From the NCBI GenBank assembly GCA_025449555.1, contig JANWJD010000084.1, positions 712 through 64,711 on the forward strand: a DNA stretch of 64,000 nt, in the 5' to 3' direction. Both the position numbers and the translations under genes were made by a program. Positions 8,361 to 50,254 of this stretch are shown here, in pieces. Positions within the stretch are counted from its first letter, which is position 1. The number at the start of each line of letters is the position of its first letter. The notes beneath the pieces were generated by a model. That model was not told the origin of the DNA. It saw only the letters and a program-made list of their open reading frames with translations, and did not search any database. Source of the DNA: Chloroflexota bacterium (GTDB lineage: Bacteria > Chloroflexota > UBA5177).

Positions 8361-8416
8361 GACCACGCGTGCAGAACACAAGGACCTCATTCCCCACTCC
8401 CATTTCCCCCGGCAAA

Positions 8417-8494
8417 CGTTGTAGCGTTGACCCTTGTGGCCAACCCGTTGTCCGAAGCGGCCGTTGTAGCGTTGACCCTTGTGGTCAACCCGTT
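8417..8494. repeat. two tandem copies (45-bp pitch) of REP-like palindromic repeat family 1
   Basis: CGTTGTAGCGTTGACCCTTGTGG(C/T)CAACCCGTT at 8417-8449 and 8462-8494; hairpin GTTGACC-CTTGT-GGTCAAC. Confidence 0.8.
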
Positions 8495-8539
8495 CTCCAA
8501 CGTGTTCATGCGCCGCGATCTCTCGGGAACTGCCCTGGC

Positions 8540-14722: not shown

Positions 14723-17700
14723 CTACGCCCCCAGCAGACGCGGTTGGTACGCGCGCACGGTCAGCGGCTTCGTATCCAGTTCGGCCACATCGTTCAGTCG
14801 CCAGATCCGCCTGGCCAGCAGCGAGGTGACGTATCGCTCCCGCTGGATCGTCCCCTCGATGATGAGCGACGAGCTGCCATTGACGACGAGACGGTAGTCG
14901 CGATACACGTTCGGAAAGACCGCAACCGGCAGTTCACCCTCTTCGTCGGCCAGCACGAGAAATGTCATCCCCTTGGCAGTCGGAGGCTGCTGGCGGCTGA
15001 TGACGATACCGGCTGTTCGCACCAGCGCACCGGGCGCTCGACCCTCGAGCTGTCCGATGGACAGGACCCGCGCGCGTTGGAGCGAGCGGCGATAAAACGA
15101 CATGATGCTGTACCGGGCTGATGCTCCCTGCAGCGTAAAGTCGATGCCGGCGACATCCAGTTCCGTCAACGGTGGCAGCTCCGGCAGGGCCGCGTCCTCC
15201 GTGCGCAGCAGGGAACGCGTGTGCGTTTCCTGATTGCGGGGCACGGTCTGCACCACCTCCTCCAGTTGCCACAGGAGCGCTCGACGGTTGAGGCCGAGGG
15301 TATCGAATGCGCCGACGGCGATCAGGTTCTCCGCCGCGTCCCGATGTGTGGAAGTCCGGCGCCAGAAATCGGTAAACGACGAGAAGGATCGGCGACCGCG
15401 CGCCTGGACGATTTCGTCCGCCGTCTCCTCGGTTATTCCCTTGACCTGCATCAGACCCATGCGAATCGCTCCGTGTTCCACGGCATACCGGGCAACGCTT
15501 CGATTTATGTCAACCGGCAGCACCCGTATCCCCCATTTGCGCGCTTCCTCGATCACGGTTTGGGTTGGGTAGTAACAACACGGCTCATTCGAAAGAATGG
15601 CGGCCAGAAATTCCGCCGGGTAATACACCTTGAGAAAGGCGGTCTGATACACCGTCTTGGCAAATGCGGCGGCATGGCTCCGACAGAAACCGTACCCCGA
15701 GAAATACGCAATGGCCTCATACATGTCTTTTGCTAACTCTCGATCGCGTCCACCCTTCACCGCGCTTTCGACGAATGCATCGCGACATACGTCCATCTGC
15801 GTCTCGGTCCGGTAATGCGACATGGCCCGGCGTAGCCCGTCGGCATCCGCATACGACAGTCCCGCGAAATCGTGCGCCACCTGCAATACCTGCTCCTGGA
15901 AGATCACGACTCCCAGCGTGTCGCGGAGACATCTCTCCAGGCTCGGATGTGGATAGGTCACCTGCTGCCGCCCCAACCGGCGCTCGACGTAGGGATCCAC
16001 CATCCCGCCCTGGAGTGGTCCGGGACGAAACAGCGCGATCTGGATAATCAGGTCGCCGAAGGTGCGGGGCTGTGAACGTGCCAGCAGCGCCCACTGCCCT
16101 GGGCTCTCTACCTGAAAGATGCCGATGGTTTTTGAGGAGCAAATCAGATCGTAAATCGCCGGATCGTCCAGCAGGAGATCGTCGATCGGCACGGTGATCC
16201 CCCGACTCCGCTCGATCCCGCGGACCGCCTCGTCGACGATGGAAAGCGTTCGAAGTCCGAGGATATCGAACTTGATCAATCCCAGCAGCTCGACATCATC
16301 CTTGTTGAACTGGCAGACACGTACCCCACTGGTCGCATACTCCAGCGGCACGACGTCGACCAATGGCTCCGCGGTGATCAGCATCCCGCCGTTGTGCAGT
16401 GAGAGATGGCGCGGGTAGCCATCCAACTGCTCGCACAGTTCGAGCACCATACTCAACGGCGTCCCTCCTGCTGCCACATCTAGTGCACGTCCAGGTGGGA
16501 TGGTGGGCACTGGCTTGTCCACGCTCGCTACGGGTCCGTCCTGTAGGGCGGGGCCGCGAAGCAGTGCCCCGCCGCCCCGTTCCATCGCGATTGCAGAACC
16601 TCCACGTTGATCCTGCACTAGGGAACTGTCGCTCTGTGCCGGCACGGGAAGTGACGTCCCGGTGACTGCTCCCGCCAGCTCCAGTTCTTCGCGCATGTGG
16701 CTGACCCCTCGATAACTGAGTTTCCCGGCCAGGTGGTCGATCAGCGATGGAGAAAAACCCATGGCCTTCGCCACATCTCGAAAGGCGGAACGTGAGCGGT
16801 AGGTAATGACGTTCGCCACCATGGCGGCATGCTCGGTGGTGTAGCGTTCCTGGATATAGGTAATAACCTCATCACGCCGTCGCGAGTCAAAGTCGATATC
16901 GACATCGGGCATTCCGACGCGACCTGGATTGAGAAAGCGCTCGAACAGGAGATTGTTCGCCAGTGGATCGACCGCGGTAATACCCAGCACGTAGGCCACG
17001 ATCGAATCGGCGGCCGATCCCCGACCGGCACACCGGATCCCGCGCTCCCGAGAAAAACGGACGATATCCCATACGCAGAGGAAAAACGAGGCAAGTCCCA
17101 TCTCCTCAATCACCGAAAGCTCGTGCGCCAGTTGTTTGCTCACCGCGGGTGTCAGTGGACGGTAGAGCCGGCGAACTCCTTCCTGACAGAGTCGATAGAG
17201 CTGAGAGAAGGCGGTTTCCCCTTCCGGCACCGGGAAATCCGGCGGACGGCAGGTGACGGCCAGCAGCTCGAGATTGCAGGAATCGGCTATTTCCTCGGAA
17301 GCGGCGGCACAGGCGTCGAATACCTCGTCAGGCAAGCCAAAGGTGGCTCGCATCTCCTCCGCCGACTTGAGGTAGTACTCGCCGTTGGGGTGCCGCACCT
17401 CGCTCCATTCGTCCAGGGTGGTCCGTGTCCCGATGCATGCCATGACATCGCGCACGCGGTATTCATCGGGATGGGCGTAATGAACGTCGTTGGCAATGGT
17501 GCAGCCTACCCCCGTGCTCGCCGCCACGTCTCGCAGCGCGTCGACCAGCGCAGTATCGTCCGGCAGGAGATGATGCTCGAGTTCGATCCAGAAGTCGCGG
17601 CCGAAGACGGCGAGATAGCGCTCGACCGCCTCGATTGCCCCCGCTCTGTCGCCTTTCAGCAGGAGTGACGGAATCTCGCCACGACGGCAACCGGACAGCG

Positions 17701-18073
17701 CGATCAAGCCTCCGGCATGAGCCGCCAGATCGGAGAACGTGATCTGGGGATCGTCCTGGTAGTCAAGCTGCGCTCTGGTGACGATGCGGCAAAGATTGCC
17801 GTAACCACTCCGGTCATCTGCCCGCAGTAGCAGGTGCGGGTTGGCGTTCGCATCGTCCGGCCCTTCTATTCGGAGGCGTATCTCCACCCCGACAATGGGC
17901 TTGATACCATGCGCCCGAGCGGCGTGAATGAAGCGGACTATGCCATACAGCCCGTGATGATCGGTGAGCGCGAGCGCGGACATGCTCAGATCTCGGGCTC
18001 GGCGGAGGAGACGATCGGGCGGAGATGCACCATCCAGAAAGCTGAAATTGCTATGAACGTGAAGCTGGATCAT
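14723..18073 (-). CDS. dnaE2: error-prone DNA polymerase DnaE2 (ImuC), PHP + Pol III alpha core
   Basis: 1116 aa; N-terminal PHP motif HVHSNFSFLDGAS; second Pol III alpha paralog in the window; directly follows imuB with the same LexA-box-controlled arrangement. Confidence 0.85.
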   Translation of the reverse strand: MIQLHVHSNFSFLDGASPPDRLLRRARDLSMSALALTDHHGLYGIVRFIHAARAHGIKPIVGVEIRLRIEGPDDANANPHLLLRADDRSGYGNLCRIVTRAQLDYQDDPQITFSDLAAHAGGLIALSGCRRGEIPSLLLKGDRAGAIEAVERYLAVFGRDFWIELEHHLLPDDTALVDALRDVAASTGVGCTIANDVHYAHPDEYRVRDVMACIGTRTTLDEWSEVRHPNGEYYLKSAEEMRATFGLPDEVFDACAAASEEIADSCNLELLAVTCRPPDFPVPEGETAFSQLYRLCQEGVRRLYRPLTPAVSKQLAHELSVIEEMGLASFFLCVWDIVRFSRERGIRCAGRGSAADSIVAYVLGITAVDPLANNLLFERFLNPGRVGMPDVDIDFDSRRRDEVITYIQERYTTEHAAMVANVITYRSRSAFRDVAKAMGFSPSLIDHLAGKLSYRGVSHMREELELAGAVTGTSLPVPAQSDSSLVQDQRGGSAIAMERGGGALLRGPALQDGPVASVDKPVPTIPPGRALDVAAGGTPLSMVLELCEQLDGYPRHLSLHNGGMLITAEPLVDVVPLEYATSGVRVCQFNKDDVELLGLIKFDILGLRTLSIVDEAVRGIERSRGITVPIDDLLLDDPAIYDLICSSKTIGIFQVESPGQWALLARSQPRTFGDLIIQIALFRPGPLQGGMVDPYVERRLGRQQVTYPHPSLERCLRDTLGVVIFQEQVLQVAHDFAGLSYADADGLRRAMSHYRTETQMDVCRDAFVESAVKGGRDRELAKDMYEAIAYFSGYGFCRSHAAAFAKTVYQTAFLKVYYPAEFLAAILSNEPCCYYPTQTVIEEARKWGIRVLPVDINRSVARYAVEHGAIRMGLMQVKGITEETADEIVQARGRRSFSSFTDFWRRTSTHRDAAENLIAVGAFDTLGLNRRALLWQLEEVVQTVPRNQETHTRSLLRTEDAALPELPPLTELDVAGIDFTLQGASARYSIMSFYRRSLQRARVLSIGQLEGRAPGALVRTAGIVISRQQPPTAKGMTFLVLADEEGELPVAVFPNVYRDYRLVVNGSSSLIIEGTIQRERYVTSLLARRIWRLNDVAELDTKPLTVRAYQPRLLGA

Positions 18074-18312
18074 CAGTCATAGAGGCGCTCTAGGAACCAT
18101 CTATCCCGCTCGCGGTAGATCTCATACGTTCCCAGGTTGTCGCACTCGACTTTGTAGTACTGGCGCGATACCTCCTGGCGCCACCAATCAGCCTGGACGA
18201 TCCAGCGCTTCAAAATAGCTGTGATGCAATGTGCCTGCCGCCGCCAGGTAAAGATCTGCGGCCGTCCCTCCGCACATTCCACCGTGATCGGGTCGGAATA
18301 CAACCTGGTCAT
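18073..18312 (-). CDS. hypothetical 79-aa protein translationally coupled between imuB and dnaE2
   Basis: ATG overlaps the imuB stop (ATGA); its TGA overlaps the dnaE2 ATG (TGATG); Trp/Arg-rich (WRRQAHCITAILKRWIVQADWWRQEV); no family recognised. Confidence 0.5.
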   Translation of the reverse strand: MTRLYSDPITVECAEGRPQIFTWRRQAHCITAILKRWIVQADWWRQEVSRQYYKVECDNLGTYEIYRERDRWFLERLYD

Positions 18313-20081
18313 GACGATCGTTTCTGTACGGCACCGGTAGTCCAGGGGAGGCCGGCCTCCCACCGAAAACGCCGTTCCGTCAGGATGTTGCCGGCATCCA
18401 CGCCGGCTACATGCTGAAACGCCGTCGTTCCGTAGCGAGCTTCAAACGCCTCATCATGGTGAGTCAGCGCCTGACGGCGCTCGGTACTGAATCCTTTCAA
18501 CCTTCCCCCGCCGTCGAGTCGGTCAAAGTCGCTCAAGGAGAGTTGAGACGGTTTCGTAAACTCTCCAATTTTCAGTTCGACTGCCAGTAAACGAGGCGCC
18601 TGCTCGTCCTCACCGGCGGTGGATCGAGGTCGCGGCCGGCTCTGCAGCAGCAACCGTTGGGCTCGTTCGAGCAGAGCAGCGGCCGTGTCGATCGGCGTAC
18701 GAACCATGGCAACCATCTGCTGTGAACGACCGATATGCTCCGGTCGCGGCGTGAAGGATGCCGGCAACATGTCTCCCTCCGCAACACCGTCCCCGCCTCC
18801 GTCACCCTTCTCCTGCTCCGCGGGAGAAGGGCCGGGGATGAGGGTGCGCGCTCCCGAAAGCGGCTGCGGCAACCCCGAAGAATGGACCCGATACGGACTC
18901 GGCAGAGTTGGTCGCTCATCGTCCCGGTGGCGTGGCGCAGCCGTCAACCGTTGTAGCGTCGCCCCTTGTGGGCGACCCCGGGCTGACGTTTCATCCCACG
19001 TGGCGCCGCCCTGCGGCATGAATGACTCCGTCGCCGAGTGTTCGGGCGCTGTCACGCTCCGACCTCCACTACATTGCCCTGTGGTCATCCGACGTGGCAT
19101 CGCTTGCGGAATGAGTGTCTCTTTTGGAGTGGGCAGCACCGACGGCTCGCCATTCTCCAGGCTTCTTGCCGGTTTTCGCTCGGGCAGTAATTGCCCCGAT
19201 TCTTCCGTCCAGATCAGGGTTAGCCCTACCAACCTTCCCCCGGCTCTACGCTCCAGCAGCTCACCGGCACAGGTGTCGGCCAGCGTACGGAGACTGTCCA
19301 TCGCTTCCTCGATCGAGCCGTCCTCGCATTCGTAGCGCGCCACAATGAACGATTTTTCTGGCGGCGGCAGGACCGGACGCGGATCGATGCCGCGCGCGTA
19401 ACGGTGAAGCTGCTCGCCGGCGGCCCCAAAGCGTTGTTTCACCGCGGAGGAAGGAAGCGCGGCAAATTGCCCAATCGTCGTGAGGCCGAGCACCTGAAAC
19501 GTCAGCGCCAGGCGAGCATCGACCCCGGGCAACAAGGTCAGCGGAAGATCCGCCAGAAAGACGCGTTCTCGTCCTCGCTCGATCACCGTCACACCATCCG
19601 CCTCGGTAGATATCGAGGCTAGCTGCGCGACCAGTCGGTTCGATGCCATGCCGAGCGAAGGAACGATGCCGGTCGAACGTTCGATCTGCCGCGCGATGGT
19701 CCGTCCGGCGCTCCACTCATCACTCCAGAAGCGCTCACATCCGGACATATCACACGCTGCCTGCCCCATCTCCTCCGGTTCGACCAGCGGAGTATGACAG
19801 CGCAAGAGGTCGCAGATTTCCTCCCATACCTGCTCGTATCGAGGGAGATCGGGCAGGAGGAAAACCCCGTGAGGACAGTGCTGGTGTGCCTGAGAAAGCG
19901 TCATGCCGAGACGCACCCCAGACTGTTGCGCCAGTTGGTTCGCCTCGCGCACTATTCCCCGCTGCTGTGGTAAGCCACCGATAACCAGCGGGCAGGAGCG
20001 CAACTCCGGGCGCCGAGCTTCCTCCACTGCCACCCAAAAGCCGGGAACCACACGAAGGTGAACGATCATCATCGCCTCCAC
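18309..20081 (-). CDS. imuB: ImuB-like Y-family polymerase homolog (SOS mutagenesis cassette)
   Basis: N-terminal ~250 aa has the UmuC/DinB-like fold pattern (VHLRV...IGGLPQQRGIVREANQLAQQSGVRLGM); long low-complexity C-terminus; immediately upstream of dnaE2; LexA box 30 bp upstream. Confidence 0.7.
   Translation of the reverse strand: MEAMMIVHLRVVPGFWVAVEEARRPELRSCPLVIGGLPQQRGIVREANQLAQQSGVRLGMTLSQAHQHCPHGVFLLPDLPRYEQVWEEICDLLRCHTPLVEPEEMGQAACDMSGCERFWSDEWSAGRTIARQIERSTGIVPSLGMASNRLVAQLASISTEADGVTVIERGRERVFLADLPLTLLPGVDARLALTFQVLGLTTIGQFAALPSSAVKQRFGAAGEQLHRYARGIDPRPVLPPPEKSFIVARYECEDGSIEEAMDSLRTLADTCAGELLERRAGGRLVGLTLIWTEESGQLLPERKPARSLENGEPSVLPTPKETLIPQAMPRRMTTGQCSGGRSVTAPEHSATESFMPQGGATWDETSARGRPQGATLQRLTAAPRHRDDERPTLPSPYRVHSSGLPQPLSGARTLIPGPSPAEQEKGDGGGDGVAEGDMLPASFTPRPEHIGRSQQMVAMVRTPIDTAAALLERAQRLLLQSRPRPRSTAGEDEQAPRLLAVELKIGEFTKPSQLSLSDFDRLDGGGRLKGFSTERRQALTHHDEAFEARYGTTAFQHVAGVDAGNILTERRFRWEAGLPWTTGAVQKRSS
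18946..18988. repeat. REP-like repeat family 1 copy inside the imuB ORF
   Basis: CAACCGTTGTAGCGTCGCCCCTTGTGGGCGACCCCGGGCTGACG; in frame, encodes GRPQGATLQRL in the imuB linker. Confidence 0.8.
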
Positions 20082-20111
20082 GACATACTGAGATCGTATT
20101 CCCTCTTATTG

Positions 20112-20123
20112 GAACATAAGTTC
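20112..20123 (-). promoter_or_regulatory. LexA/SOS box (GAAC-N4-GTTC, Cheo-box type) upstream of imuB
   Basis: GAACATAAGTTC lies ~30 bp upstream of the imuB start, beside a TATATAAT -10-like element. Confidence 0.7.
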
Positions 20124-20227
20124 TATATAATGTCAATACCTGGGACATATTTTCTCATAAGACACTACATGTTGTGGCCCACCCTCCATTCACCCGACTC
20201 TGGATGATCACCATACGCACACATGGT

Positions 20228-30534: not shown

Positions 30535-30692
30535 ACGGCGCCCTCGTCCTCACTGTCGTAGCGACGTTCGTACTCGTCATAGCTGAGGATTACCAGCGGT
30601 TTGTCCTTGTACAGGGCCACTTGAGGAGTGCCGCTGGACGCGGCATGCTCGAGGGCGTCTTTTAACGCGGTCGTGACCTCGATTTTGATCAT
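30531..30692 (-). CDS. Phd/YefM-like antitoxin-fold small protein (orphan, no toxin partner)
   Basis: 53 aa MIKIEVTTALKDALEHAASSGTPQVALYKDKPLVILSYDEYERRY resembles the Phd/YefM N-domain; strong GAAGGAGA RBS 5 nt upstream; no adjacent toxin ORF. Confidence 0.45.
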   Translation of the reverse strand: MIKIEVTTALKDALEHAASSGTPQVALYKDKPLVILSYDEYERRYDSEDEGAV

Positions 30693-37218: not shown

Positions 37219-37292
37219 TGGCTGCGGGACAGGGATTCGAACCCCAACTTCTTGATCCAGAGTCAAGCGTCCTACCGTTAGACTATCCCGCA
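37219..37292 (-). tRNA. tRNA-Gln (anticodon CUG)
   Basis: Cloverleaf read by hand: acceptor TGCGGGA/TCCCGCA, anticodon stem CTTGA/TCAAG with loop CTCTGGA (anticodon CTG), T-arm GGGGTTCGAATCCCC, encoded CCA. Confidence 0.85.
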
Positions 37293-38695: not shown

Positions 38696-39295
38696 TCAAA
38701 AAATGCGAATCGTCAAGCTTGTCAATTCGTTCAATGGCCAGTACGATATCCAGGCTCTTCCGATGATGTACCTGCGGGCAAGCCAGGGAGTCCTCGGCCA
38801 TCGACTGGAATCGAAGCTGTTGTTTCGGTTGTCGCCCAGAACAAAATAACTGTTTTCCGGTACCCGCCGCACTGCGAATGAGTTTACCGACAGGGACGTG
38901 ATGTATGACTCGTGCACTTGACGCCGGTTGACGTAGACGCGCCCGCCGCGAATCTCTACGGTGTCACCGGGTTGAGCGATAATCCGTTTGATAAAGTCGC
39001 GATCCGGATTGTCGGCCGGCACAGCCCGAAACACTACCACGTCCCCGCGCTGCGGAGCGTGAAACCAATACTCTGCCTTGTCGACCAATACATACTCGTC
39101 ATTATGAAGAGTTGGTTGCATCGAGTCGCCTTGCACTCGAAAGTTCTGAAATGCGACTCGCACGATGAGAAACATCACGCCTGCCAGAATCACGGTTTGC
39201 GAAATTTCGCGCCAACGTCGGGTTTTGCGTTCGGTCGCCGGGCCCTTTTCGCGCATTCCACCCGAAGGCTCATTTTCGAGCCGTGAAGTGGTCAA
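38696..39295 (-). CDS. lepB: signal peptidase I
   Basis: Catalytic Ser motif GDSMQPT and Lys-box (KRIIAQPGD); TM anchor; start overlaps the selA stop (ATGA). Confidence 0.85.
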   Translation of the reverse strand: MTTSRLENEPSGGMREKGPATERKTRRWREISQTVILAGVMFLIVRVAFQNFRVQGDSMQPTLHNDEYVLVDKAEYWFHAPQRGDVVVFRAVPADNPDRDFIKRIIAQPGDTVEIRGGRVYVNRRQVHESYITSLSVNSFAVRRVPENSYFVLGDNRNNSFDSSRWPRTPWLARRYIIGRAWISYWPLNELTSLTIRIF

Positions 39296-40680
39296 TCCGG
39301 CCCCGGATGCGTCATCTGCAGTGCGGCCAGCAATCCCTCCAGCAGGCTGCTCTCTTCCTCCTCACCCACGGTTCGCGGATCGATCACGATTCGCCCGGCA
39401 TGGGTACGCGCGATGATCGGGGTCTCAAGTGCGCGCAGCGTTTCGGCCTTGATCGAGGGAGGCAGAACAACCAGCGTGGTCGGCAGCGTCTCACCGGGCA
39501 GTGAACCGCCTCCGACGGTGGATTCTCCTGGTTCCAGGTGTAGTCGCAGCCCACGCGTCTCTGCCTGCGTTTGCAACGAGCGAGCGCGTATTTCAATCTG
39601 AGTGGAGCTTTGGGCGATCATGCGCCACACCGGCACCGTTTTTTCGGCATTCCCCGCGAGGTACGAGTGAACTGTGGCTGAGAGCGCCGCGATTGTGACT
39701 TTGTCCGGCCGCACCGCACGAGCCAGCGGATGACCTCGAAGTCGATTGACCAAACTCGCACGGCCCAGGATGAGACCGGATTGTGGACCTCCCATGAGTT
39801 TATCTCCCGAAAATGCGACGAGATCGACTCCTGCTGCTAGCGCCTCCGGAACTGTGGGCTCGTGCGCGAGTCCGAAGCGCTCAGTATCGAGCAGCGCACC
39901 GCTCCCGTTATCGTCGATGAGCGGGAGGCCGTGTGCGTGAGCTAAGTTGGCCAATTCGGGCAACGCAACTGTTTCCGTGAAACCGACGATGCGAAAGTTG
40001 CTGGTGTGTACATTCAAGATGGCGGCGGTTCTGGCATTGATTGCTTCCGCATAGTCCGGCAAGCGTGTACGGTTGGTCGTGCCGACTTCGACCAGCTTCG
40101 CGCCACTTTGTTTGAGAACGACGGGCACACGGAAACCGCCCCCGATTTCTACCGACTGACCGCGTGACACGATCACCTCGCGTCGCTTTGCCAGAGCAGT
40201 GATGATCAGCAGAACGGCCGCGGAGGCGCTGACCGTGACGAACGCTGCTTCAGCTCCTGTCAACGATGTCAATTGCCGTCCAACGCGCGTCTGTCGGTCG
40301 CCTCGACCGCCGCTCGTGAGGTCGTACTCGAGATCGCAGTACCCCGAAGCTACCGCGATCGCCTCCCTCGCTGCCGGGCCGAGCGGCGCCCGCGCCAGGT
40401 TCGTGTGGAGTATTACTCCAGTGGCGTTGATAATGCGACGCGGCCCTACCGCCCAATCCCGCAGGATGCGAGAACGAACGATGGCGGCGAACTCGTCGAC
40501 ACTTGGCGCGTGGACTTCTCGTGGCGACGCACTCCGGTACTCCTGAAGCGTTGATCGCACTAACCGAGTAACCGCTTCTTGTTGATACTGGGAAAGGATC
40601 TCCTCGAGAACTTCCGATCGCAATACGCCGTCTACCGATGGAAGTCCCCTCAGGAACGATCGATCGTGCTCCGTGCTCAA
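39292..40680 (-). CDS. selA: L-seryl-tRNA(Sec) selenium transferase
   Basis: Full-length alignment to SelA by eye: LRGLPSVD N-terminus, VLHTNLAR, EYDL..G.RG.R, VSRG..VEIGGGFR, HTSNF, FSGDKLMGGPQ (PLP-Lys). Confidence 0.85.
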   Translation of the reverse strand: MSTEHDRSFLRGLPSVDGVLRSEVLEEILSQYQQEAVTRLVRSTLQEYRSASPREVHAPSVDEFAAIVRSRILRDWAVGPRRIINATGVILHTNLARAPLGPAAREAIAVASGYCDLEYDLTSGGRGDRQTRVGRQLTSLTGAEAAFVTVSASAAVLLIITALAKRREVIVSRGQSVEIGGGFRVPVVLKQSGAKLVEVGTTNRTRLPDYAEAINARTAAILNVHTSNFRIVGFTETVALPELANLAHAHGLPLIDDNGSGALLDTERFGLAHEPTVPEALAAGVDLVAFSGDKLMGGPQSGLILGRASLVNRLRGHPLARAVRPDKVTIAALSATVHSYLAGNAEKTVPVWRMIAQSSTQIEIRARSLQTQAETRGLRLHLEPGESTVGGGSLPGETLPTTLVVLPPSIKAETLRALETPIIARTHAGRIVIDPRTVGEEEESSLLEGLLAALQMTHPGPD

Positions 40681-41701: not shown

Positions 41702-42465
41702 GCGGCCCGCACTACGGTCAACAGGTTGGGACTGTCCGCTTCATACGGTTCCAGATCGTACGAACCATAGGTCTGGCCCGGTCGGAACCCAGCAGACAGT
41801 AGCATGAGTTCCAACTCGAATCGGTACGTGTACCGTAGTGGTAGGTGGGTTATAGCCCGCCTTACCGTTCCAGATTCGTCCGTCTGGTCGTACCACAGAG
41901 AAAGGTCGAGTAGTTGTTCGGCGGGCGAATCGACCGTACTCGAGAATGCTTGTAACTGAGTCCCATTTCCTTGCGAGTGGAAACGCAATTGAACCGCATC
42001 TCCCAGGTGCTGGTTCGCCAGGGTAAGGGGATTGGTGAGGTCCATCACGAGCAGACCGCCCTCGACCAGGCACGAGCGCGCTTGCCGGAGGGCGCCGACC
42101 TGTGCCTCCAGGTTGGGAAGATGCCAGAGCACGTTCAGCGGCCAGATTACCGTCCGAAATCGCGGCGGAAGGGAGAGCGCCTGCACCGACATGAGCTGCA
42201 CGGACGCATTGGCCAATCCGACAAGGCGGACGCGGGCAGCGGACAGCATGGCCCCCGAGGTATCGATTCCGACCACTTCCAGGCCCTTCCTGGCCAGCCG
42301 TTCAACAATCCGCCCAGTGCCGCAGCCCACTTCCAGCACCGGACCTTCCTGGACGACATTGGCGAAAAATGACACGTCGTCGTCAAACGCGTCGTGCTCC
42401 AGGTCATAGAACTCAACTATGTCTCGGTATGGGTCCATGCTGTGTCCGGAGTGCAGTATAGTCAT
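41698..42465 (-). CDS. class I SAM-dependent methyltransferase
   Basis: Motif I VLEVGCGTGR and Rossmann-fold MTase pattern. Confidence 0.8.
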   Translation of the reverse strand: MTILHSGHSMDPYRDIVEFYDLEHDAFDDDVSFFANVVQEGPVLEVGCGTGRIVERLARKGLEVVGIDTSGAMLSAARVRLVGLANASVQLMSVQALSLPPRFRTVIWPLNVLWHLPNLEAQVGALRQARSCLVEGGLLVMDLTNPLTLANQHLGDAVQLRFHSQGNGTQLQAFSSTVDSPAEQLLDLSLWYDQTDESGTVRRAITHLPLRYTYRFELELMLLSAGFRPGQTYGSYDLEPYEADSPNLLTVVRAA

Positions 42466-42502
42466 TAGTATAGAGACGCAACCTTCATTGGAGGTTCAGA
42501 GA

Positions 42503-43669
42503 ATGGGGAATGGTAGGGGACCCGTTCTCGTCGTCGACGACGAACCGGACATAGTCGATTTCTTAACGACGGTTCTGGTCGACGAAGGATACGCCACCGA
42601 GTCGGCCAGCGACGGCGTTGAGGCGTTGCAAAAGATCGCCGTCAGCGATCCGGCGCTCGTGATTCTCGATCTCATGATGCCGCGTATGTCCGGTTTCGAG
42701 GTACTAAAAGCACTCGGAGAAAGGCGCACGTCAGGACGTCCCTCGATTATCGTTTTGAGCGCGAAATCGAGCCATCACGATATCCTCGAGGCTCTCGAGA
42801 CGGGTGCCGACGATTTCATTCCCAAACCCTTCGACCTGGAGGACCTGCTCCTGCGGGTACGCGTCTGGCTGGACCGTTCGCAGGCGAGTCATGCCGAGGC
42901 GTCGAGTCTCAAAGTGTTCACATTGGGACCTTTTCGAGCTTTGCTCGGCAGCGAACTTCTATTTGACGAAGAAACGGGCGATCCGAGAGCACGTCTTCTG
43001 TTGAAATATTTGGTCACGGAGTGGGACCAGCCGATTCAACGTTCGACCGCCCTCTATCTCTTGTGGCCGGACCTTGAGGAGCACGACGCTTCCGATCGTC
43101 TGTCTGCGGTATTGGCTTCGCTCGCGCCACCGGCACGACCCGACCGTCAGGTAGGAAAATTCGTGCTGGAAGAAGGGTCCACCTTGCAGCTGAATAAGGG
43201 AGCCGACATCTGGGTAGATTCGATCGAATTCGAGGCACAGGTCAAAGCGGCACAGGATGCCCAGGAATCGGGCCAAGTCGACACTGCTTTGGGCCTTTTT
43301 CTGGCTGCGCTCGCACTGTACAAAGAGGATTACTTGCGTGAGAATCTGTACGAAGATTGGCCGAGTGATCGTCGAGAACGAATGCGAGAACTCTGGATTT
43401 CTTCGATGTTCCGAGTAGCGGCACTCTGTGCTGATCGTTGCGAGTACTCAGACAGCATCCGGCTGATGAAGAAAGTGCTCGATATCGATCCTTATCGTGA
43501 AAACGCATATCAGGCGCTGATGCTCTACCTCTCGCGAGCGGGCCGGCGGGGTGAGGCAATCAATCTATACCGGTATGCGGAGCGCCTTTTTGCGCAACAT
43601 TTAGCGGCACAGCCGGCTCCGTCCACCCGAATGTTGTACGAAAAGATATTGCGTGGCGAAGCAGGCTGA
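42503..43669 (+). CDS. response regulator with REC - winged-helix (OmpR/SARP-type) - BTAD domain architecture
   Basis: CheY-like VLVVDDEPDIV...DLMMP...K; central wHTH; C-terminal BTAD (DPYRENAYQALMLYLSRAGRRGEAINLYRYAERL); GGAGG RBS 7 nt before the ATG at 42503. Confidence 0.7.
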   Translation: MGNGRGPVLVVDDEPDIVDFLTTVLVDEGYATESASDGVEALQKIAVSDPALVILDLMMPRMSGFEVLKALGERRTSGRPSIIVLSAKSSHHDILEALETGADDFIPKPFDLEDLLLRVRVWLDRSQASHAEASSLKVFTLGPFRALLGSELLFDEETGDPRARLLLKYLVTEWDQPIQRSTALYLLWPDLEEHDASDRLSAVLASLAPPARPDRQVGKFVLEEGSTLQLNKGADIWVDSIEFEAQVKAAQDAQESGQVDTALGLFLAALALYKEDYLRENLYEDWPSDRRERMRELWISSMFRVAALCADRCEYSDSIRLMKKVLDIDPYRENAYQALMLYLSRAGRRGEAINLYRYAERLFAQHLAAQPAPSTRMLYEKILRGEAG

Positions 43670-44903: not shown

Positions 44904-47900
44904 CTATACCGTAAGGGGTTCGCCGTCCACCCGAACTGCAGCACCTTCGAGCACCCTCGTCAGCTCCGACGCCAGTTCATCGCAGTACCCGATGGACGTG
45001 TTGGGCAGTGGAATCGCCGTCAATCGAGCGCCTTTCCGAACCAGGATTTCCACCTCGTCCTGGCCATGAAACCGTTGCATGACCTCGTAAGCGGCGACGA
45101 TGCGTGCCACGTCTTCCAGTCGATCAGGTCCGCGATGTATTTCGATTGTCAGGCGCTTTGGTGGCCGATCGAACGATGGTGCCGACGCTGCTCCATTTCC
45201 GTTTGCACCGGCTGACTCACTACGCACTTTGTGCTTGCCATTCAGGCCCGGAGACAAAGGGTGGTCACTCAAGTCCTCGAGTGCGTGCACCGCGCTGGCC
45301 AGTAAACGCAGTCGACCGTCGGAAGCGTCGATCTTCCCCTCGATCACCACGGTCGCCCCTTCGGTTAGTCTGGCGCTCACCTGCTCGTAACTTCGGCTAA
45401 ATACGACGACCTCCACGCTCGCTCGGAGATCGGAGAGCTGGAACGAGGCCATGGGCCGGCCGTCTTTGGTCGAGAACGAGCGTAACCGGCGAACTACTCC
45501 ACCGGCAGCGACTCGTTGTGCATCCTGCTCGCCCGTGACATCGCCCACGGGGATCGCGTTGGCGGCCCGAATGGCCGGCGCAAGATCGGCTATGGGATGA
45601 CGGGAGACGGTGGTCCCCAGCAATTCTTCCTCCCACTCGATCTTCTCGTCGAGGGACGCCGCGTCTACGATTGGAAGTTGGAGGATAGGCGCCACGGTCG
45701 AGGCGTCCCCGAAAAGTGACACCTGGCCCGACGCCGCCGCGCGTTGTACGCTCAAAGCGAATCCTGCAATTCGATCGAGTCCTTCGACTAATCTCTTTCG
45801 TTCCACTCCAATACCGTCGAGGGCCCCACACTTTGCCAGACTCTCGAGTACGCGCTTGTTGATGGCAGTGGAATCCATCCGCGTGCATAGATCTTCCAGG
45901 GACGCAAATGGGCCCCTTTCGTTCCGTGCTCGCAACAGTGACTCAACTGCCCCAGTGCCGACGTGTTTGATCGCCCCGAGACCGAATCGGATGCCTCCAT
46001 CTTCGAGCGTGAAGTCAACGTCGCTCCGGTTCACGTCCGGAGGAAGAATTCTTATGCCCAAACGGCCGCATTCGGACATGGCCTCGGTAACCTTCTCCGC
46101 GTTTTCTCGCTCCGCGGAAAGGTATCCGGCCAGATACTCTCTGGGATGGTTAGCCTTTAGATAGGCGGTCTGACAGGTAATGACTGCGTAGGCAGCGGCA
46201 TGGGCCTTGTTAAAGGCATAGCCCGCAAAAGGCTCGATCACGTTGAACAGGTGCTCAGCGGTCGCCGCATCGGTACCGCGGTCGCCGGCCCGTTCGATGA
46301 AGGCGGAACGATGCTTTGCGAGTTCAGCCGCCTTCTTCTTTCCCATGGCGCGCCGCAACAGATCGGCCTCCCCCATGGTGTATCCGGCCACCAGGGCAGC
46401 GACTCGCATCACCTGGTCCTGATAGACCACGATGCCATAGGTCTCTTGCAGCACTTCCTGCAGTGCGGGATGGTCGTATGTTACTCGCTTCAACCCGTTC
46501 TTCCGCGCCACGAATTCCGGAATGTGCTCCATCGGCCCCGGCCGATAGAGGGCACCGGCGGCGACGATATGTTTGAATTCGGTGGGACGCAATTCACGCA
46601 TCAATTTTCTGAAGCCTGCACCGTCAACCTGAAAAATTCCAAACGTGTCGCCCGAACTGAGCAGATCGTAAATACTGGAATCCTCCAGCGGAATATCATC
46701 AAGCTCACAGGAGGTTCCGGTCGTGGACTCAATGAAACCGCGGGCCCGCTCCAGAATCGTCAAAGTGCGGAGTCCAAGGAAGTCCATCTTGAGAAGGCCA
46801 ATTTTTTCGATCGACGCCATGGCGTACTGCGTGGTGACTTGATCGCTTTTTGGGACCTTATAAAGCGGAACGTGCTCGGCCAGTGGATCTTTTGAGATGA
46901 CGACGCCCGCCGCGTGAGTTGAAGCGTGACGCGCCACGCCCTCCAGATCTTCCACGGTGTCGAGTAACGTCTTCATGGCGTCATCAGTCTCGTAAAGCTG
47001 TCGCAGTTCAGCAACTTCCTCTTTCGCCTTGGCCACTTTCGAGCACATGAAGGGAACGAGCTTGGCTACGCGATCGACATCGGGATAAGGCATACCAAGT
47101 ACTCTGCCGACATCCCGCACACCGGCTCGCGGACCCATCGTGCCGAACGTAATAATTTGCGCTACACGATCACGCCCGTACTTTTCGTTCACATACTTGA
47201 TCACCTCGTCCCTGCGGTCGTCGGCAAAGTCCAGATCCATATCCGGCATAGTCACCCTCTCCGGGTTCAAAAACCGCTCGAAGGATAGTCCATGTCCCAC
47301 CGGATCGATGTTTGTGATGAAGAGGCAGTATGCCACAATGCTGGCGGCGGCGCTCCCCCGCCCAGGACCAACGGCGATTCCCTGTTCGCGCGCAAAGCGT
47401 ATAACGTCGTACACCAGCAAAAAGTAGTCGACGAAGCCGGTCCGGAAAATCACTGTCAGCTCGTATTCGAGGCGCGCACGGATCTCGGCAGTAACCTCGG
47501 GGTACCTCCGACTGAGTCCGGCTTCGCACAGCCGGCGCAGATACTCCTCAGAGGTAAGGCCATCCGGCGTGTCGAATTTCGGGAGGTGCGGTCGCCCGAA
47601 AACAAGGTCCAAATTACATCGATCGGCAATCGCGATCGTGTTGCTCACAGCTCCAGGGTAATCACCGAAAAGCGCGTGCATCTGCTGCGGAGACTTTAGA
47701 TAGAACTGTTGTGACTCCATGCGCATGCGCTTGGGATCGCTCATCGTGGTCTGCGTCTGAACGCACAACAACACTTCGTGCGCGTACGCCTGCCGCTCCG
47801 TCACATAGTGAACATCGTTTGTTGCCACGAGCGGAACTCCGAGGCGTTGGTGCAAGTGCAGGATTCCCTGGTTGATCGTCTTCTGGAATTCAAGCTCGTG

Positions 47901-48428
47901 ATACTGCAGTTCGAGAAAGTAGCGGTCGGCGAACACCTGTCGATACCAATCCGCCCGCTCTTCAGCGCCACCGAGGTTGCCATCCAGGATTAAACGGGCC
48001 ACTTCACTGCTGGCGCAGGCCGACATACAGATGAGGCCCTCGGAGTGGCGCTCGAGCAACTCGTGGTCCACTCGCGGCTTTCGATAGAAGCCTCGCAAAT
48101 GCGCTTGCGTGGTCAACTGAATGAGATTTCGGTAGCCGGCTTCGTTCTCAGCCAGGAGCACGAGATGGTAGTTCTTCGAAGCTGGTCCGGGTCGTTTCTC
48201 CAGGGGAGCGTCGGAGACGTACACCTCGCAGCCGATGATCGGCTTAACTCCAGCCCCCTTTGCCTTGTCGTAGAACTCAATTGCCGCGAACATGGTGCCG
48301 TGATCGGTCAGCGCCAGTGCCGGCATACCGAAATCACGTGCAGACTGCAGAAGATCGTCAATTCGTGCGAGCCCATCCAGCAGTGAATAGGAGGTGTGGC
48401 TATGGAGGTGCACAAAGTTATCTGTCAC
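44904..48428 (-). CDS. dnaE: DNA polymerase III alpha subunit (replicative)
   Basis: 1175-1197 aa; PHP motif FVHLHSHTSYSLLDG; Pol III alpha palm/fingers; OB fold near C-terminus; start GTG at 48428 or TTG at 48497. Confidence 0.92.
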   Translation of the reverse strand: MTDNFVHLHSHTSYSLLDGLARIDDLLQSARDFGMPALALTDHGTMFAAIEFYDKAKGAGVKPIIGCEVYVSDAPLEKRPGPASKNYHLVLLAENEAGYRNLIQLTTQAHLRGFYRKPRVDHELLERHSEGLICMSACASSEVARLILDGNLGGAEERADWYRQVFADRYFLELQYHELEFQKTINQGILHLHQRLGVPLVATNDVHYVTERQAYAHEVLLCVQTQTTMSDPKRMRMESQQFYLKSPQQMHALFGDYPGAVSNTIAIADRCNLDLVFGRPHLPKFDTPDGLTSEEYLRRLCEAGLSRRYPEVTAEIRARLEYELTVIFRTGFVDYFLLVYDVIRFAREQGIAVGPGRGSAAASIVAYCLFITNIDPVGHGLSFERFLNPERVTMPDMDLDFADDRRDEVIKYVNEKYGRDRVAQIITFGTMGPRAGVRDVGRVLGMPYPDVDRVAKLVPFMCSKVAKAKEEVAELRQLYETDDAMKTLLDTVEDLEGVARHASTHAAGVVISKDPLAEHVPLYKVPKSDQVTTQYAMASIEKIGLLKMDFLGLRTLTILERARGFIESTTGTSCELDDIPLEDSSIYDLLSSGDTFGIFQVDGAGFRKLMRELRPTEFKHIVAAGALYRPGPMEHIPEFVARKNGLKRVTYDHPALQEVLQETYGIVVYQDQVMRVAALVAGYTMGEADLLRRAMGKKKAAELAKHRSAFIERAGDRGTDAATAEHLFNVIEPFAGYAFNKAHAAAYAVITCQTAYLKANHPREYLAGYLSAERENAEKVTEAMSECGRLGIRILPPDVNRSDVDFTLEDGGIRFGLGAIKHVGTGAVESLLRARNERGPFASLEDLCTRMDSTAINKRVLESLAKCGALDGIGVERKRLVEGLDRIAGFALSVQRAAASGQVSLFGDASTVAPILQLPIVDAASLDEKIEWEEELLGTTVSRHPIADLAPAIRAANAIPVGDVTGEQDAQRVAAGGVVRRLRSFSTKDGRPMASFQLSDLRASVEVVVFSRSYEQVSARLTEGATVVIEGKIDASDGRLRLLASAVHALEDLSDHPLSPGLNGKHKVRSESAGANGNGAASAPSFDRPPKRLTIEIHRGPDRLEDVARIVAAYEVMQRFHGQDEVEILVRKGARLTAIPLPNTSIGYCDELASELTRVLEGAAVRVDGEPLTV

Positions 48429-48489
48429 GGATCCGAGACTCCCGAACTGAGATGAAGCGACAAGAACTATCCTACACCACAGCTTAAGT

Positions 48490-48545
48490 CCTCTCAAGGC
48501 CCTTGTAGTACTTGAAATGGATTACAAGGGCCTTGGACACAGGGT
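48490..48545. promoter_or_regulatory. paired CAAGG-N1-CCTTG palindromes in the dnaE upstream region (candidate operator sites)
   Basis: CAAGGCCCTTG (48495-48505) and CAAGGGCCTTG (48525-48535), then GACAC; 70-110 bp upstream of the dnaE GTG start. Confidence 0.5.
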
Positions 48546-48709
48546 GCAAGAGTGTACATTTCCACAATTCAACACTGGGTCACGTCGCCGCTCAATTCGA
48601 ACTCGAGGCGCGGTCGCACGCGATCCACCGCGTCTGGTCTCTCGCAATTGAGGCGAGCCCACCAATTCTTCGGCGGTTTTATCGGATTGATTCTGGTATG
48701 AGCCCGGAA

Positions 48710-49390
48710 TCAGACGCTGCGGTCGAGATTTTCCAGCATTGCTAGGAACCGGTCGCACAACGCCTGATATTCGGCGGCGGACCAGGACGGATCGGCCGAC
48801 GGCAACTTTTCCAGCAGTCGGGCCTTGGCGTGTAATAGCTCGCTGCCGAGACCAGGACTCGCCGAACGCACACTCTTTGCACTGTTCAACACTGCTCCGG
48901 TCTGAGGAGCGCTTTCTTCAGCTTCCGCCGCCGGCAGTGACGTGTCCTCAGACGTAGAAACAGCATCGGCATCATCGATCTTCGCCAGGTGACACACGGC
49001 GTAGAAGAATCGGGCTGCATTCTTCGCTTGCGATGCCGAGCTACTTATGCGGAAAAAATTGACCAGATCTTCCTGGGTCCACTTATCCGCCCCGGCATCA
49101 AATACAGGCTTGTACGCGGTCTCAACAAGATGTCGAAGCGTCGGCTCAAACCGATCGGTCGTTTGCAGCAGTCGATAGGCATGAGTCGGCTTGCCGCGAT
49201 CGTCCACGACGCCCAGAAATTTCAAGGCACTCAAAAGCGCATACTCATTGTTGCTCGCCACGTTCAGCTTCTCGAGAAAGCTGTGATCTACCACCTCCGG
49301 AACTTGACGGTCACGGATTCGCGCGAAAAAACGCTCGAGAGACGAGATCGGCGCATAGGGAGCGCGACGAACCGCGAAGTCGCTTGCCAT
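48710..49390 (-). CDS. DUF5343-like hypothetical protein
   Basis: 226 aa from the ATG at 49390 (MASDFAVRRAPYAPISSLERFF...LSALKFLGVVDD); family assignment from memory only; flanked on both sides by CAAGG/CCTTG palindromes. Confidence 0.45.
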   Translation of the reverse strand: MASDFAVRRAPYAPISSLERFFARIRDRQVPEVVDHSFLEKLNVASNNEYALLSALKFLGVVDDRGKPTHAYRLLQTTDRFEPTLRHLVETAYKPVFDAGADKWTQEDLVNFFRISSSASQAKNAARFFYAVCHLAKIDDADAVSTSEDTSLPAAEAEESAPQTGAVLNSAKSVRSASPGLGSELLHAKARLLEKLPSADPSWSAAEYQALCDRFLAMLENLDRSV

Positions 49391-49404
49391 CAATGCAGCC
49401 ACCT

Positions 49405-49570
49405 GTATTCCAAGGCTGTAACTCTTGGACACAAGGTACCACAAAGGCTGGTATCGTACAAGGCACCTTGGACCTCATATCGCGAGTCTAACGTTCACTT
49501 GTGCAATCTGTAACCGGGACGATCGCTTAGACAATTGTGGATACAAGGTATGTTACAGACCTTGGCGGAG
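49405..49570. promoter_or_regulatory. cluster of CAAGG...CCTTG(G) palindromes upstream of the DUF5343-like gene
   Basis: CCAAGGctgtaactCTTGG (49410-49428), CTTGGACACAAGG (49424-49436), CAAGGCACCTTG (49460-49471), CAAGGtatgttacagaCCTTGG (49544-49565); words shared with the dnaE-side sites. Confidence 0.5.
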
Positions 49571-49615: not shown

Positions 49616-50254
49616 TTACACGCCGCGCTGCAGGGCACGGGCTAGTTCTGCCTGCCGGATGCTGATCGTGAGATCACCACGTGTGCGCTCCAGGACGGCC
49701 CGCAGCGAATCCGTGGTTCTCCGCAGACCCCCCGTGATCGCGTCGGGATAATCTACGGTTATGAGGTTCGTGTACACGTCATCCATGATTTTTAGTACAC
49801 GCTCGGCCTCTTGCATTTCGGCTTCTCCGCCGCGGCGGATGATGTCGAGTACATAGCGCCGCATCTCGCTAGCGGCTTCCGCCATACCGTTTAGAAACGG
49901 CGCCGGCTCGATGCCCAGCTCGCTCGGTTGCGGGAGTTCCTGCGACTGCAATATCGCGGCCACGATAAAGGCCTCGGCAATTTCCTTCTGGGCGTCCTGT
50001 ACGTACCCGGTCCAGTACAGATCCGGGTGTCCTTCCAGATCGAATTTGGTAGCTTGCACCATGCTACGACCAGCGTCGAGCGATTCCTGGGCACGCTCGT
50101 ATTCGCCCCGGTGAAGCGCCCGAATTCCGGTCGCCGCGTGTCGCACTATCTGGCGGGATTCGACCAGTGCGCGATCGCGTGCCTGGTTCTTGGTCTCGAG
50201 GTCCCCGACGATTCGCGACACCGCCCCGTCTATGTCCATATTGAAGATCTTCAT
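49616..50254 (-). CDS. translin-family-like protein (tentative)
   Basis: 212-aa all-helical protein; weak resemblance to archaeal/bacterial translin; no diagnostic motif verified. Confidence 0.35.
   Translation of the reverse strand: MKIFNMDIDGAVSRIVGDLETKNQARDRALVESRQIVRHAATGIRALHRGEYERAQESLDAGRSMVQATKFDLEGHPDLYWTGYVQDAQKEIAEAFIVAAILQSQELPQPSELGIEPAPFLNGMAEAASEMRRYVLDIIRRGGEAEMQEAERVLKIMDDVYTNLITVDYPDAITGGLRRTTDSLRAVLERTRGDLTISIRQAELARALQRGV

Follow-up and report, generated by a model that had tools for sequence, protein, structure and literature searches.

Why should a replicative DNA polymerase gene and a small gene of no assigned function carry the same palindromic words upstream of their start codons? 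The question is raised by a 64-kb stretch of DNA from a Chloroflexota bacterium (contig JANWJD010000084.1), here called the window, in which dnaE, encoding the alpha subunit of DNA polymerase III, lies downstream of a gene whose product belongs to the DUF5343 family. A first-pass annotation of the window had proposed that palindromes in which CAAGG faces CCTTG occur only upstream of these two genes, and that they are either operators of one dimeric transcription factor or att-like repeats around a 0.9-kb insertion. The first of these readings is the one favoured here, the palindromes being, with a probability of about two in three, the operators of a sequence-specific and probably dimeric regulator of the helix-turn-helix type that is shared by the promoters of dnaE (the replicative dnaE1, as set out below) and DUF5343. 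The motif at this locus is non-random, conserved, linked to both genes independently and positioned at promoters, which are themselves predicted; from this we infer binding by a protein, and likewise the sign of the regulation and the identity of the factor that are considered below.

The motif in the window and in related loci

Within the window (GC about 59%) CAAGG-N0-4-CCTTG is found three times, at 48495, 48525 and 49459, where 0.16 copies would be expected, and three copies were reached in none of 100 shuffles. All three are intergenic and confined to the regions upstream of dnaE and the DUF5343 gene, exactly as the first-pass annotation had it, and the caveat it had attached, that the motif might be frequent at random positions, does not hold within the 64 kb. 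Ranked by their content of CAAGG and CCTTG, the two richest 200-bp segments of the whole window are exactly these two intergenic regions. The two dnaE sites have their centres 71.5 and 101.5 nt before the GTG start codon, in agreement with the 70-110 bp given earlier, and they double as the arms of a perfect 13-nt inverted repeat (48495-48507 and 48523-48535). The sites have dyad symmetry, with the half-site centres of TACAAG-N3/4-CTTGTA lying 9-10 bp apart, which is about one helical turn. Wider-spaced forms are also present, with CCAAGG (49410-49415) facing CTTGG (49424-49428) and CAAGG (49544-49548) facing CCTTGG (49560-49565). Among the words that were said to be shared by the two regions TACAAGG is indeed enriched (seven copies in the window against 2.5 expected, four of the seven in these two regions), whereas CCTTGGAC by itself is not significantly so (three against 2.0), and one of its copies is within dnaE.

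For comparison 43 related DUF5343-dnaE loci were retrieved (labelled L001 and so on, with W for the window), all from Chloroflexota metagenome-assembled genomes (MAGs) except L018, which is labelled Proteobacteria, and the motif scan covered the window and about 300 kb of these loci. An unbiased count over 13 orthologous regions returned TACAAG as the top-enriched 6-mer upstream of both genes (12/13 and 10/13, against about 1.7 expected). Of the 21 distinct regions upstream of dnaE 19 contain CAAG-N2-5-CTTG, centred 55-76 nt (mostly 65-75) before the start codon, as do 16 of the 31 regions upstream of DUF5343, giving densities of 7.2/kb and 3.0/kb against 0.065/kb in the remaining 185 kb of the loci, that is an enrichment of 46-110-fold. 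The background matches in the related loci are mostly coding, and one of them is an unrecognised dnaE site at the end of a contig. The proposal of operators for one dimeric factor is supported, as far as sequence goes, by this position being conserved in the promoters of about 20 relatives.

The motif also follows each gene separately. Where the translin-like gene that normally precedes DUF5343 separates it from dnaE (L017 and L040), dnaE keeps the motif immediately upstream, and where insertion sequence (IS) transposases follow DUF5343 and no dnaE is found within 3 kb (L032-34), DUF5343 keeps the motif in the perfect form GTACAAGGCGCCTTGTAC. Therefore, both dnaE and DUF5343 carry it in their own right, which, judged from these alignments of loci, looks like a small regulon.

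The proximal dnaE site reads CAAG-N3-CTTG in 17 of the 21 distinct relatives and takes the N4 form in two more, and the DUF5343 site reads CAAG-N4-CTTG in 13 of the 16 relatives that bear the palindrome. It is apparent that the one-base difference in spacing, 3 bp at dnaE (17/19 proximal sites) and 4 bp at DUF5343 (13/16), is conserved throughout the clade. A second dnaE palindrome lies 30 bp upstream of the first in W, L001, L009, L020, L005 and L015 and 31.5 bp upstream in L040 (seven in total), and where the distal element is not palindromic a direct TACAAGG half-site stands at the equal offset.

When the upstream regions are aligned on an anchor, conservation is limited to the half-sites and a -10-like hexamer while the flanks diverge. 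At dnaE the alignment has CAAG at offsets 0, -9 and -30 (in some also -21) from the proximal half-site, followed by the inverted CTTG, the copy 9 bp upstream being conserved in most relatives as (A)CAAG(T), and at DUF5343 GT(A/C)CAAG(A/G) is kept at the offset of the half-site that begins at 49424 in the window. The conserved cores are TACAAG-N3-CTTG at dnaE and GTACAAG-N4-CTTGTAC at DUF5343. The fifth base of CAAGG varies without compensation (CAAGA/CCTTG, CAAGT/GCTTG), therefore the true core is TACAAG / CTTG(TA), and variation of this kind would fit base-specific protein contacts on the CAAG core rather than base pairing.

Further conserved words stand near the sites. Tandem 8-bp units of TGTnGAAA (48552-48575, gene strand GTGTTGAATTGTGGAAATGTACAC), which are similar to a DnaA box or 0A box, are placed some 20 bp beyond the distal dnaE palindrome on its upstream side, and at least 10 relatives have two to three copies of them (among these L001, L009, L020, L005, L006, L012 and L027-30), and a related word in the opposite orientation, ACAATTGTGGATA, is found upstream of DUF5343 (49531-49543); these units possibly provide a second regulatory input. 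CTGTAAC/GTTACAG ranks second in enrichment upstream of DUF5343; it is found at 49416-49422, 49508-49514 and 49552-49558 and at corresponding places in relatives, being present in 8-9 of the 13 against about 0.6-0.8 expected. One copy coincides with the stop codon of the translin-like gene or lies close to it, and a complementary copy adjoins the Shine-Dalgarno (SD) sequence of DUF5343 (TTACAGGTGG or TTACAGAGGTG in relatives); the word could be a second operator, or could mask the SD through long-range pairing in read-through transcripts. Most relatives retain the block CTGTAAC-N3-CCTTGTAT..ACAATTGT, but only the closest ones also retain the CAAGG arm upstream of it.

Predicted promoters, an operator model and its rivals

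A promoter scan gave TTGAGA-17-TAGGAT (48497->48469) for dnaE, and inspection of the DUF5343 upstream region gave TTGTAC-17-TACCTT (49461->49433). The palindromes overlap both predicted -35 elements and are absent from the other promoters and from the rest of the window, its other three promoter-like sites being without the motif. TAGGAT, TACGAT or TACTAT stands 17 bp past the TTG of the palindrome at dnaE in 11 of 19 relatives, and TTGTAC-17-TACNNT or TATNNT is found at DUF5343 in 11 of the 16 that bear the palindrome. The promoter of the translin-like gene was considered as a third target and rejected, the CCTTGG at its -35 being peculiar to the window and not conserved in relatives.

If the palindromes are operators, the regulator would recognise the conserved half-site TACAAG, present as an inverted pair whose CAAG and CTTG are separated by 3 bp at dnaE and by 4 bp at DUF5343. 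As the TTG of the 3' half-site starts the -35 hexamer in both predicted promoters, a dimer would be bound over the -35 and centred near -38 in each. At dnaE further binding could take place at the second site, which is three helical turns away at about -68, and at a direct half-site at about -50, and the -38/-68 layout would suit either a repressor that occludes the -35 or an activator of the class II/I type. At DUF5343 a further half-site would fall at the predicted transcription start, and occupancy of both -35 and +1 would be expected to give repression, possibly autorepression.

A number of points weigh against this model. The promoters and transcription starts are predictions from sequence only, and the motif scan is of the limited extent given above. 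Roughly half of the regions upstream of DUF5343, for the most part the more remote ones, are without the full palindrome, and in L004, L005, L008, L013, L014, L017, L037 and L040 it is outside the TTG-17-TANNNT register; it may be that the position of the palindrome relative to the promoter varies among relatives.

The rival that survives best is one in which no dedicated transcription factor takes part and the signal is intrinsic to the promoter, with CCTTG serving as an extended -35 and the upstream CAAG as an UP-like element or as a contact of sigma factor or RNA polymerase. The TTG of the -35-like hexamer does always come from the 3' half, and the translin-like promoter of the window also reads CCTTGGTG-16-TAGGAT, although the CCTTG of that promoter is, as said, not conserved in relatives, the CC before TTG is missing at the other three promoter-like sites of the window, and there is no -10 at 16-18 bp after the perfect palindrome in L032-34. 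Conservation moreover extends to the upstream CAAG, to the second copy 30 bp away and to the +1 half-site, none of which has a role in a sigma-70 promoter, and we consider an explanation of this kind unlikely.

Rather less probable again is that the palindromes act as nucleic-acid structure, be it a cruciform in the DNA or, in transcripts that read through from DUF5343 into dnaE, an RNA stem-loop, with the function of an attenuator, processing site or stabiliser. The two dnaE sites of the window pair as a perfect 13-bp stem with a 15-nt loop, and the 152-nt region folds at -48.6 kcal/mol (z = -2.3), but the 13-bp pairing decays uncompensated, with 9-11 of the 13 pairs left in L001, L009, L020 and L005 when the arms are compared manually, and L004, L008 and L013, in which a direct repeat takes the distal place, cannot form the stem. 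A single 11-bp site would have a loop of only 1-3 nt, and the region upstream of DUF5343 shows no unusual stability (z = -1.1). There is no U-tract and no terminator was called at the sites, which lie upstream of the predicted transcription starts, and no Rfam family was found for the region (best E-value 4.7), Rfam yielding only a tRNA in the window as a whole.

That the palindromes are SOS (LexA) boxes on a polymerase gene, as in imuA-imuB-dnaE2 cassettes, is highly improbable, for whilst one does overlap a DnaE-family promoter, and a small gene of unknown function does stand in front of that DnaE-family gene, the polymerase gene in question is dnaE1, the palindromes have no match to the Gram-positive, actinobacterial, cyanobacterial or E. 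coli type of consensus, and a genuine Cheo-type box, AGAACTTATGTTC at 20112-20124, is carried by an ImuB-like/DUF6504/DnaE2 cassette of the same window. This SOS-type mutagenesis cassette, on the minus strand at 14723-20136, has genes for an ImuB-like Y-family polymerase (20081->18309), DUF6504 (18363->18073) and an error-prone DnaE2 (18073->14723; NF004225 score 971 against a cutoff of 939), and its promoter combines the Cheo-type LexA box with a TTGACA at 20136->20131. The LexA-controlled cassette (14723-20081) and the dnaE1 locus are alike in that a polymerase III alpha-family gene lies behind a poorly known gene with a palindromic operator, putative at dnaE1, in the promoter; they differ in the operator, which is GAAC-N4-GTTC there and CAAG-N3/4-CTTG at dnaE1, and in the upstream gene, which here is DUF5343 and not ImuB or ImuA.

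The locus and its gene order

The translin-like gene, DUF5343 and dnaE are co-directional on the minus strand (Table 1), and the divergent context that had been claimed for DUF5343 was mistaken. The dnaE product has the Pfam domains PHP, DNA_pol3_alpha, finger, HHH_6 and OB, and the gene is the replicative dnaE1 because its product scores above the cutoff with NCBIfam NF005298 (1354 bits, cutoff 1260) and below it with the error-prone model NF004225 (695, cutoff 939). The DUF5343 product belongs to Pfam PF17278 (61.6 bits with a gathering cutoff of 27, residues 11-140 covered). The translin-like gene matches NCBIfam PRK14562 models titled 'HAD superfamily', every match being below cutoff, and has a weak similarity to the Translin family (PF01997, E=0.008); in this clade its association with DUF5343 and dnaE is conserved.

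Table 1. Coordinates of the genes, predicted promoter elements and predicted operators at the dnaE-DUF5343 locus of the window
Feature	Position	Strand or sequence	Remarks
dnaE1, replicative DNA polymerase III alpha subunit	44904..48428	-	1174 aa; GTG start at 48428
dnaE promoter -10 hexamer TAGGAT (predicted)	48469..48474	-	promoter scan
dnaE promoter -35 hexamer TTGAGA (predicted)	48492..48497	-	TTG is the end of the proximal palindrome
Proximal dnaE operator (predicted)	48495..48505	plus strand CAAGGCCCTTG; gene strand (TA)CAAGGGCCTTG	centred near position -38 of the predicted promoter
Extra half-site TCAAGT (gene strand)	48510..48515	-	9 bp upstream of the proximal CAAG
Distal dnaE operator (predicted)	48525..48535	plus strand CAAGGGCCTTG; gene strand CAAGGCCCTTG(TA)	exactly 30 bp upstream of the proximal site
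DUF5343 gene	48710..49390	-	226 aa; ATG at 49390; SD AGGTGG at 49399-49404
CCAAGG	49410..49415	.	predicted 5' untranslated region of DUF5343, 5 nt upstream of the SD; conservation partial
Half-site GTCCAAG (gene strand)	49424..49430	-	approximately at the predicted transcription start of the DUF5343 promoter
DUF5343 promoter -10 hexamer TACCTT (predicted)	49433..49438	-	preceded by TGG
DUF5343 promoter -35 hexamer TTGTAC (predicted)	49456..49461	-	TTG is the palindrome end
DUF5343 operator (predicted)	49459..49470	plus strand CAAGGCACCTTG; gene strand (GTC)CAAGGTGCCTTG(TAC)	12-bp CAAG-N4-CTTG; centre 74 nt before the ATG
Distal wide inverted repeat CAAGG-N11-CCTTG	49544..49564	.	encloses GTTACAG; adjoins ACAATTGTGGATA at 49531-49543
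Translin-like gene	49616-50254	-	212 aa; 5' neighbour of DUF5343

The alternative that the first-pass annotation had offered, of att-like direct repeats (CTTGGACACA[GA]GGT) left by a 0.9-kb insertion carrying the DUF5343 gene, is refuted because gene order is kept across Chloroflexota MAGs, over 40 loci in all, with DUF5343 between the translin-like gene and dnaE, or beside them, wherever a relative has sufficient flanking sequence. The gene does stand between two copies of a 14-nt direct repeat that are 93% identical (48532-48545 and 49424-49437), but this repeat is only a half-site with a chance extension, and relatives keep the GTCCAAG half-site and not the extension. DUF5343 has diverged in parallel with its neighbours (77/66/60% against 94/68/87% for the dnaE N-terminus), no integrase, transposase or other recombinase domain was found with Pfam, and there is no compositional break, the GC of 0.568 being equal to that of the flanks.

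Homologues of the DUF5343 protein gave 152 matches, which are Chloroflexota MAG proteins, 48-79% identical among those listed and 44-79% across the Chloroflexota MAGs. The order translin-like gene, DUF5343, dnaE is kept wherever the flank suffices, with a few exceptions. In L014 the 2.9 kb available upstream of DUF5343 contain no translin-like gene, and L017 and L040/41 have the order DUF5343, translin-like gene, dnaE. In L032-34 a PD-(D/E)XK nuclease gene takes the place of the translin-like gene upstream of DUF5343, and genes for DDE_5 and IS4/5-family transposases (3742-5390 in L032, also in L033 and L034) lie directly downstream, breaking the adjacency to dnaE.

Elsewhere in the window two words were considered as related sites and rejected. 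The ACAAGG cluster at 8378-8482 corresponds to a 35-nt direct repeat, similar to repetitive extragenic palindromic (REP) elements, between convergent genes, and the TACAAGG at 30605 is inside a small open reading frame and is coding. The 35-nt repeat, GTTGTAGCGTTGACCCTTGTGGyCAACCCGTT, is found at 8418-8452 and 8463-8497 with a GTTGACC/GGTCAAC hairpin in each copy. The remaining context is ordinary, including a gene for SelA (selenocysteine synthase) at 39292-40680 and the sole tRNA gene of the window, a tRNA-Gln (CTG) at 37219-37292.

Known operators and candidate binders

In a consensus scan the palindromes were fitted by none of the known operators tried, which were those of LexA (four types), NrdR, CRP, FNR and CopY/BlaI and the radiation/desiccation response motif (RDRM). 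The NrdR box acaCwAtATaTwGtgt, a 16-bp palindrome, is matched in neither region when up to 4 mismatches are allowed. All that the scan returned were DnaA-box-like words with one mismatch, ATTTCCACA at 48558 and GTATCCACA on the gene strand upstream of DUF5343, and a CTGT-N8-ATAG that overlies the predicted -10 of dnaE and shows no conservation as a LexA box.

Tandem palindromic operators that are phased by whole turns are known from the NrdR boxes at nrd and some replication genes, and from CRP and FNR, where class II and class I sites are at -41.5/-71.5. The dnaE region is similar in having two palindromes 30 bp apart with the proximal one over the predicted -35 of a DNA-synthesis gene, but the consensus is unrelated and the half-sites here occur also as direct repeats 9 bp apart. 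The operators of BlaI/MecI/CopY are TACA-N2-TGTA, bound by winged-helix proteins that dimerise through a helical part at the C-terminus. The palindrome at the present locus likewise has TACA...TGTA as its outer bases, and the architecture of these binders may loosely resemble the AlphaFold2 (AF2) model of the DUF5343 protein; however, the spacing is 7-8 bp and not 2, TACANNTGTA is in neither region, and there is no similarity of sequence and no significant similarity of fold.

The DUF5343 protein is itself a tentative candidate for the factor that recognises TACAAG-N3/4-CTTGTA, on the grounds of its adjacency and of the sites in its own promoter. In this it would resemble autoregulated local transcription factors that lie next to their target, with sites in the promoter of its gene, in that of the next gene downstream and nowhere else in the 64 kb, and with its own sites kept when it is away from dnaE (L032-34). 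The AF2 model (mean predicted local distance difference test, pLDDT, of 81 over the full length and 88 over the N-domain) has three helices with a beta-hairpin in its N-domain, then a linker that is disordered, and a pair of helices at the C-terminus, and the N-domain as modelled is reminiscent of a winged helix. The same layout is found throughout PF17278, a family of 2808 representative clusters that are nearly all 210-260 aa long, and the linker looks basic in the distant members that were aligned.

Unlike local transcription factors of this type, the DUF5343 protein has no recognised DNA-binding domain, and the fold searches were non-significant, with Foldseek giving no significant match to a solved DNA-binding fold in the PDB (best E of 1.3 or more) and a profile search of PDB sequences giving no match. 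The putative recognition helix is rather hydrophobic, and one member of the family is fused to a PilB-type ATPase, both of which speak against DNA binding. The distant members are stand-alone genes in unrelated contexts with no shared partner, those whose upstream regions were examined have no obvious palindrome there, and the family matches a candidate defence component, PADLOC PDC-M34A. No paper that mentions DUF5343 or PDC-M34 was found in the literature.

A speculative alternative binder is the REC-BTAD response regulator encoded two genes away (42419-43669). Its gene is often a neighbour of the locus, is absent from it in L006 and L007, and has no winged helix-turn-helix that could be detected between REC and BTAD.

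The locus thus presents a conserved and apparently undescribed cis-regulatory palindrome that is common to the gene for the replicative polymerase and its DUF5343 neighbour, and that would be, as a mechanism, of an ordinary kind, namely an operator. To our knowledge, dedicated operator control of the replicative polymerase gene dnaE1 is unusual and has rarely been documented. In an uncultured lineage of soil Chloroflexota, a sharply defined and conserved cis-element links dnaE1 to PF17278, a large uncharacterised family. If another factor binds, the motif would still be a handle for defining the regulon of that factor in MAGs. If it is DUF5343 that binds the 15-bp palindrome, this could give PF17278 a first function and could show how replication capacity is tuned in these organisms. 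The family, with its approximately 2800 representative clusters and no assigned function, would then be a new family of DNA-binding regulators, and the member described here a dedicated, autoregulated transcriptional controller of dnaE1 in this Chloroflexota lineage.

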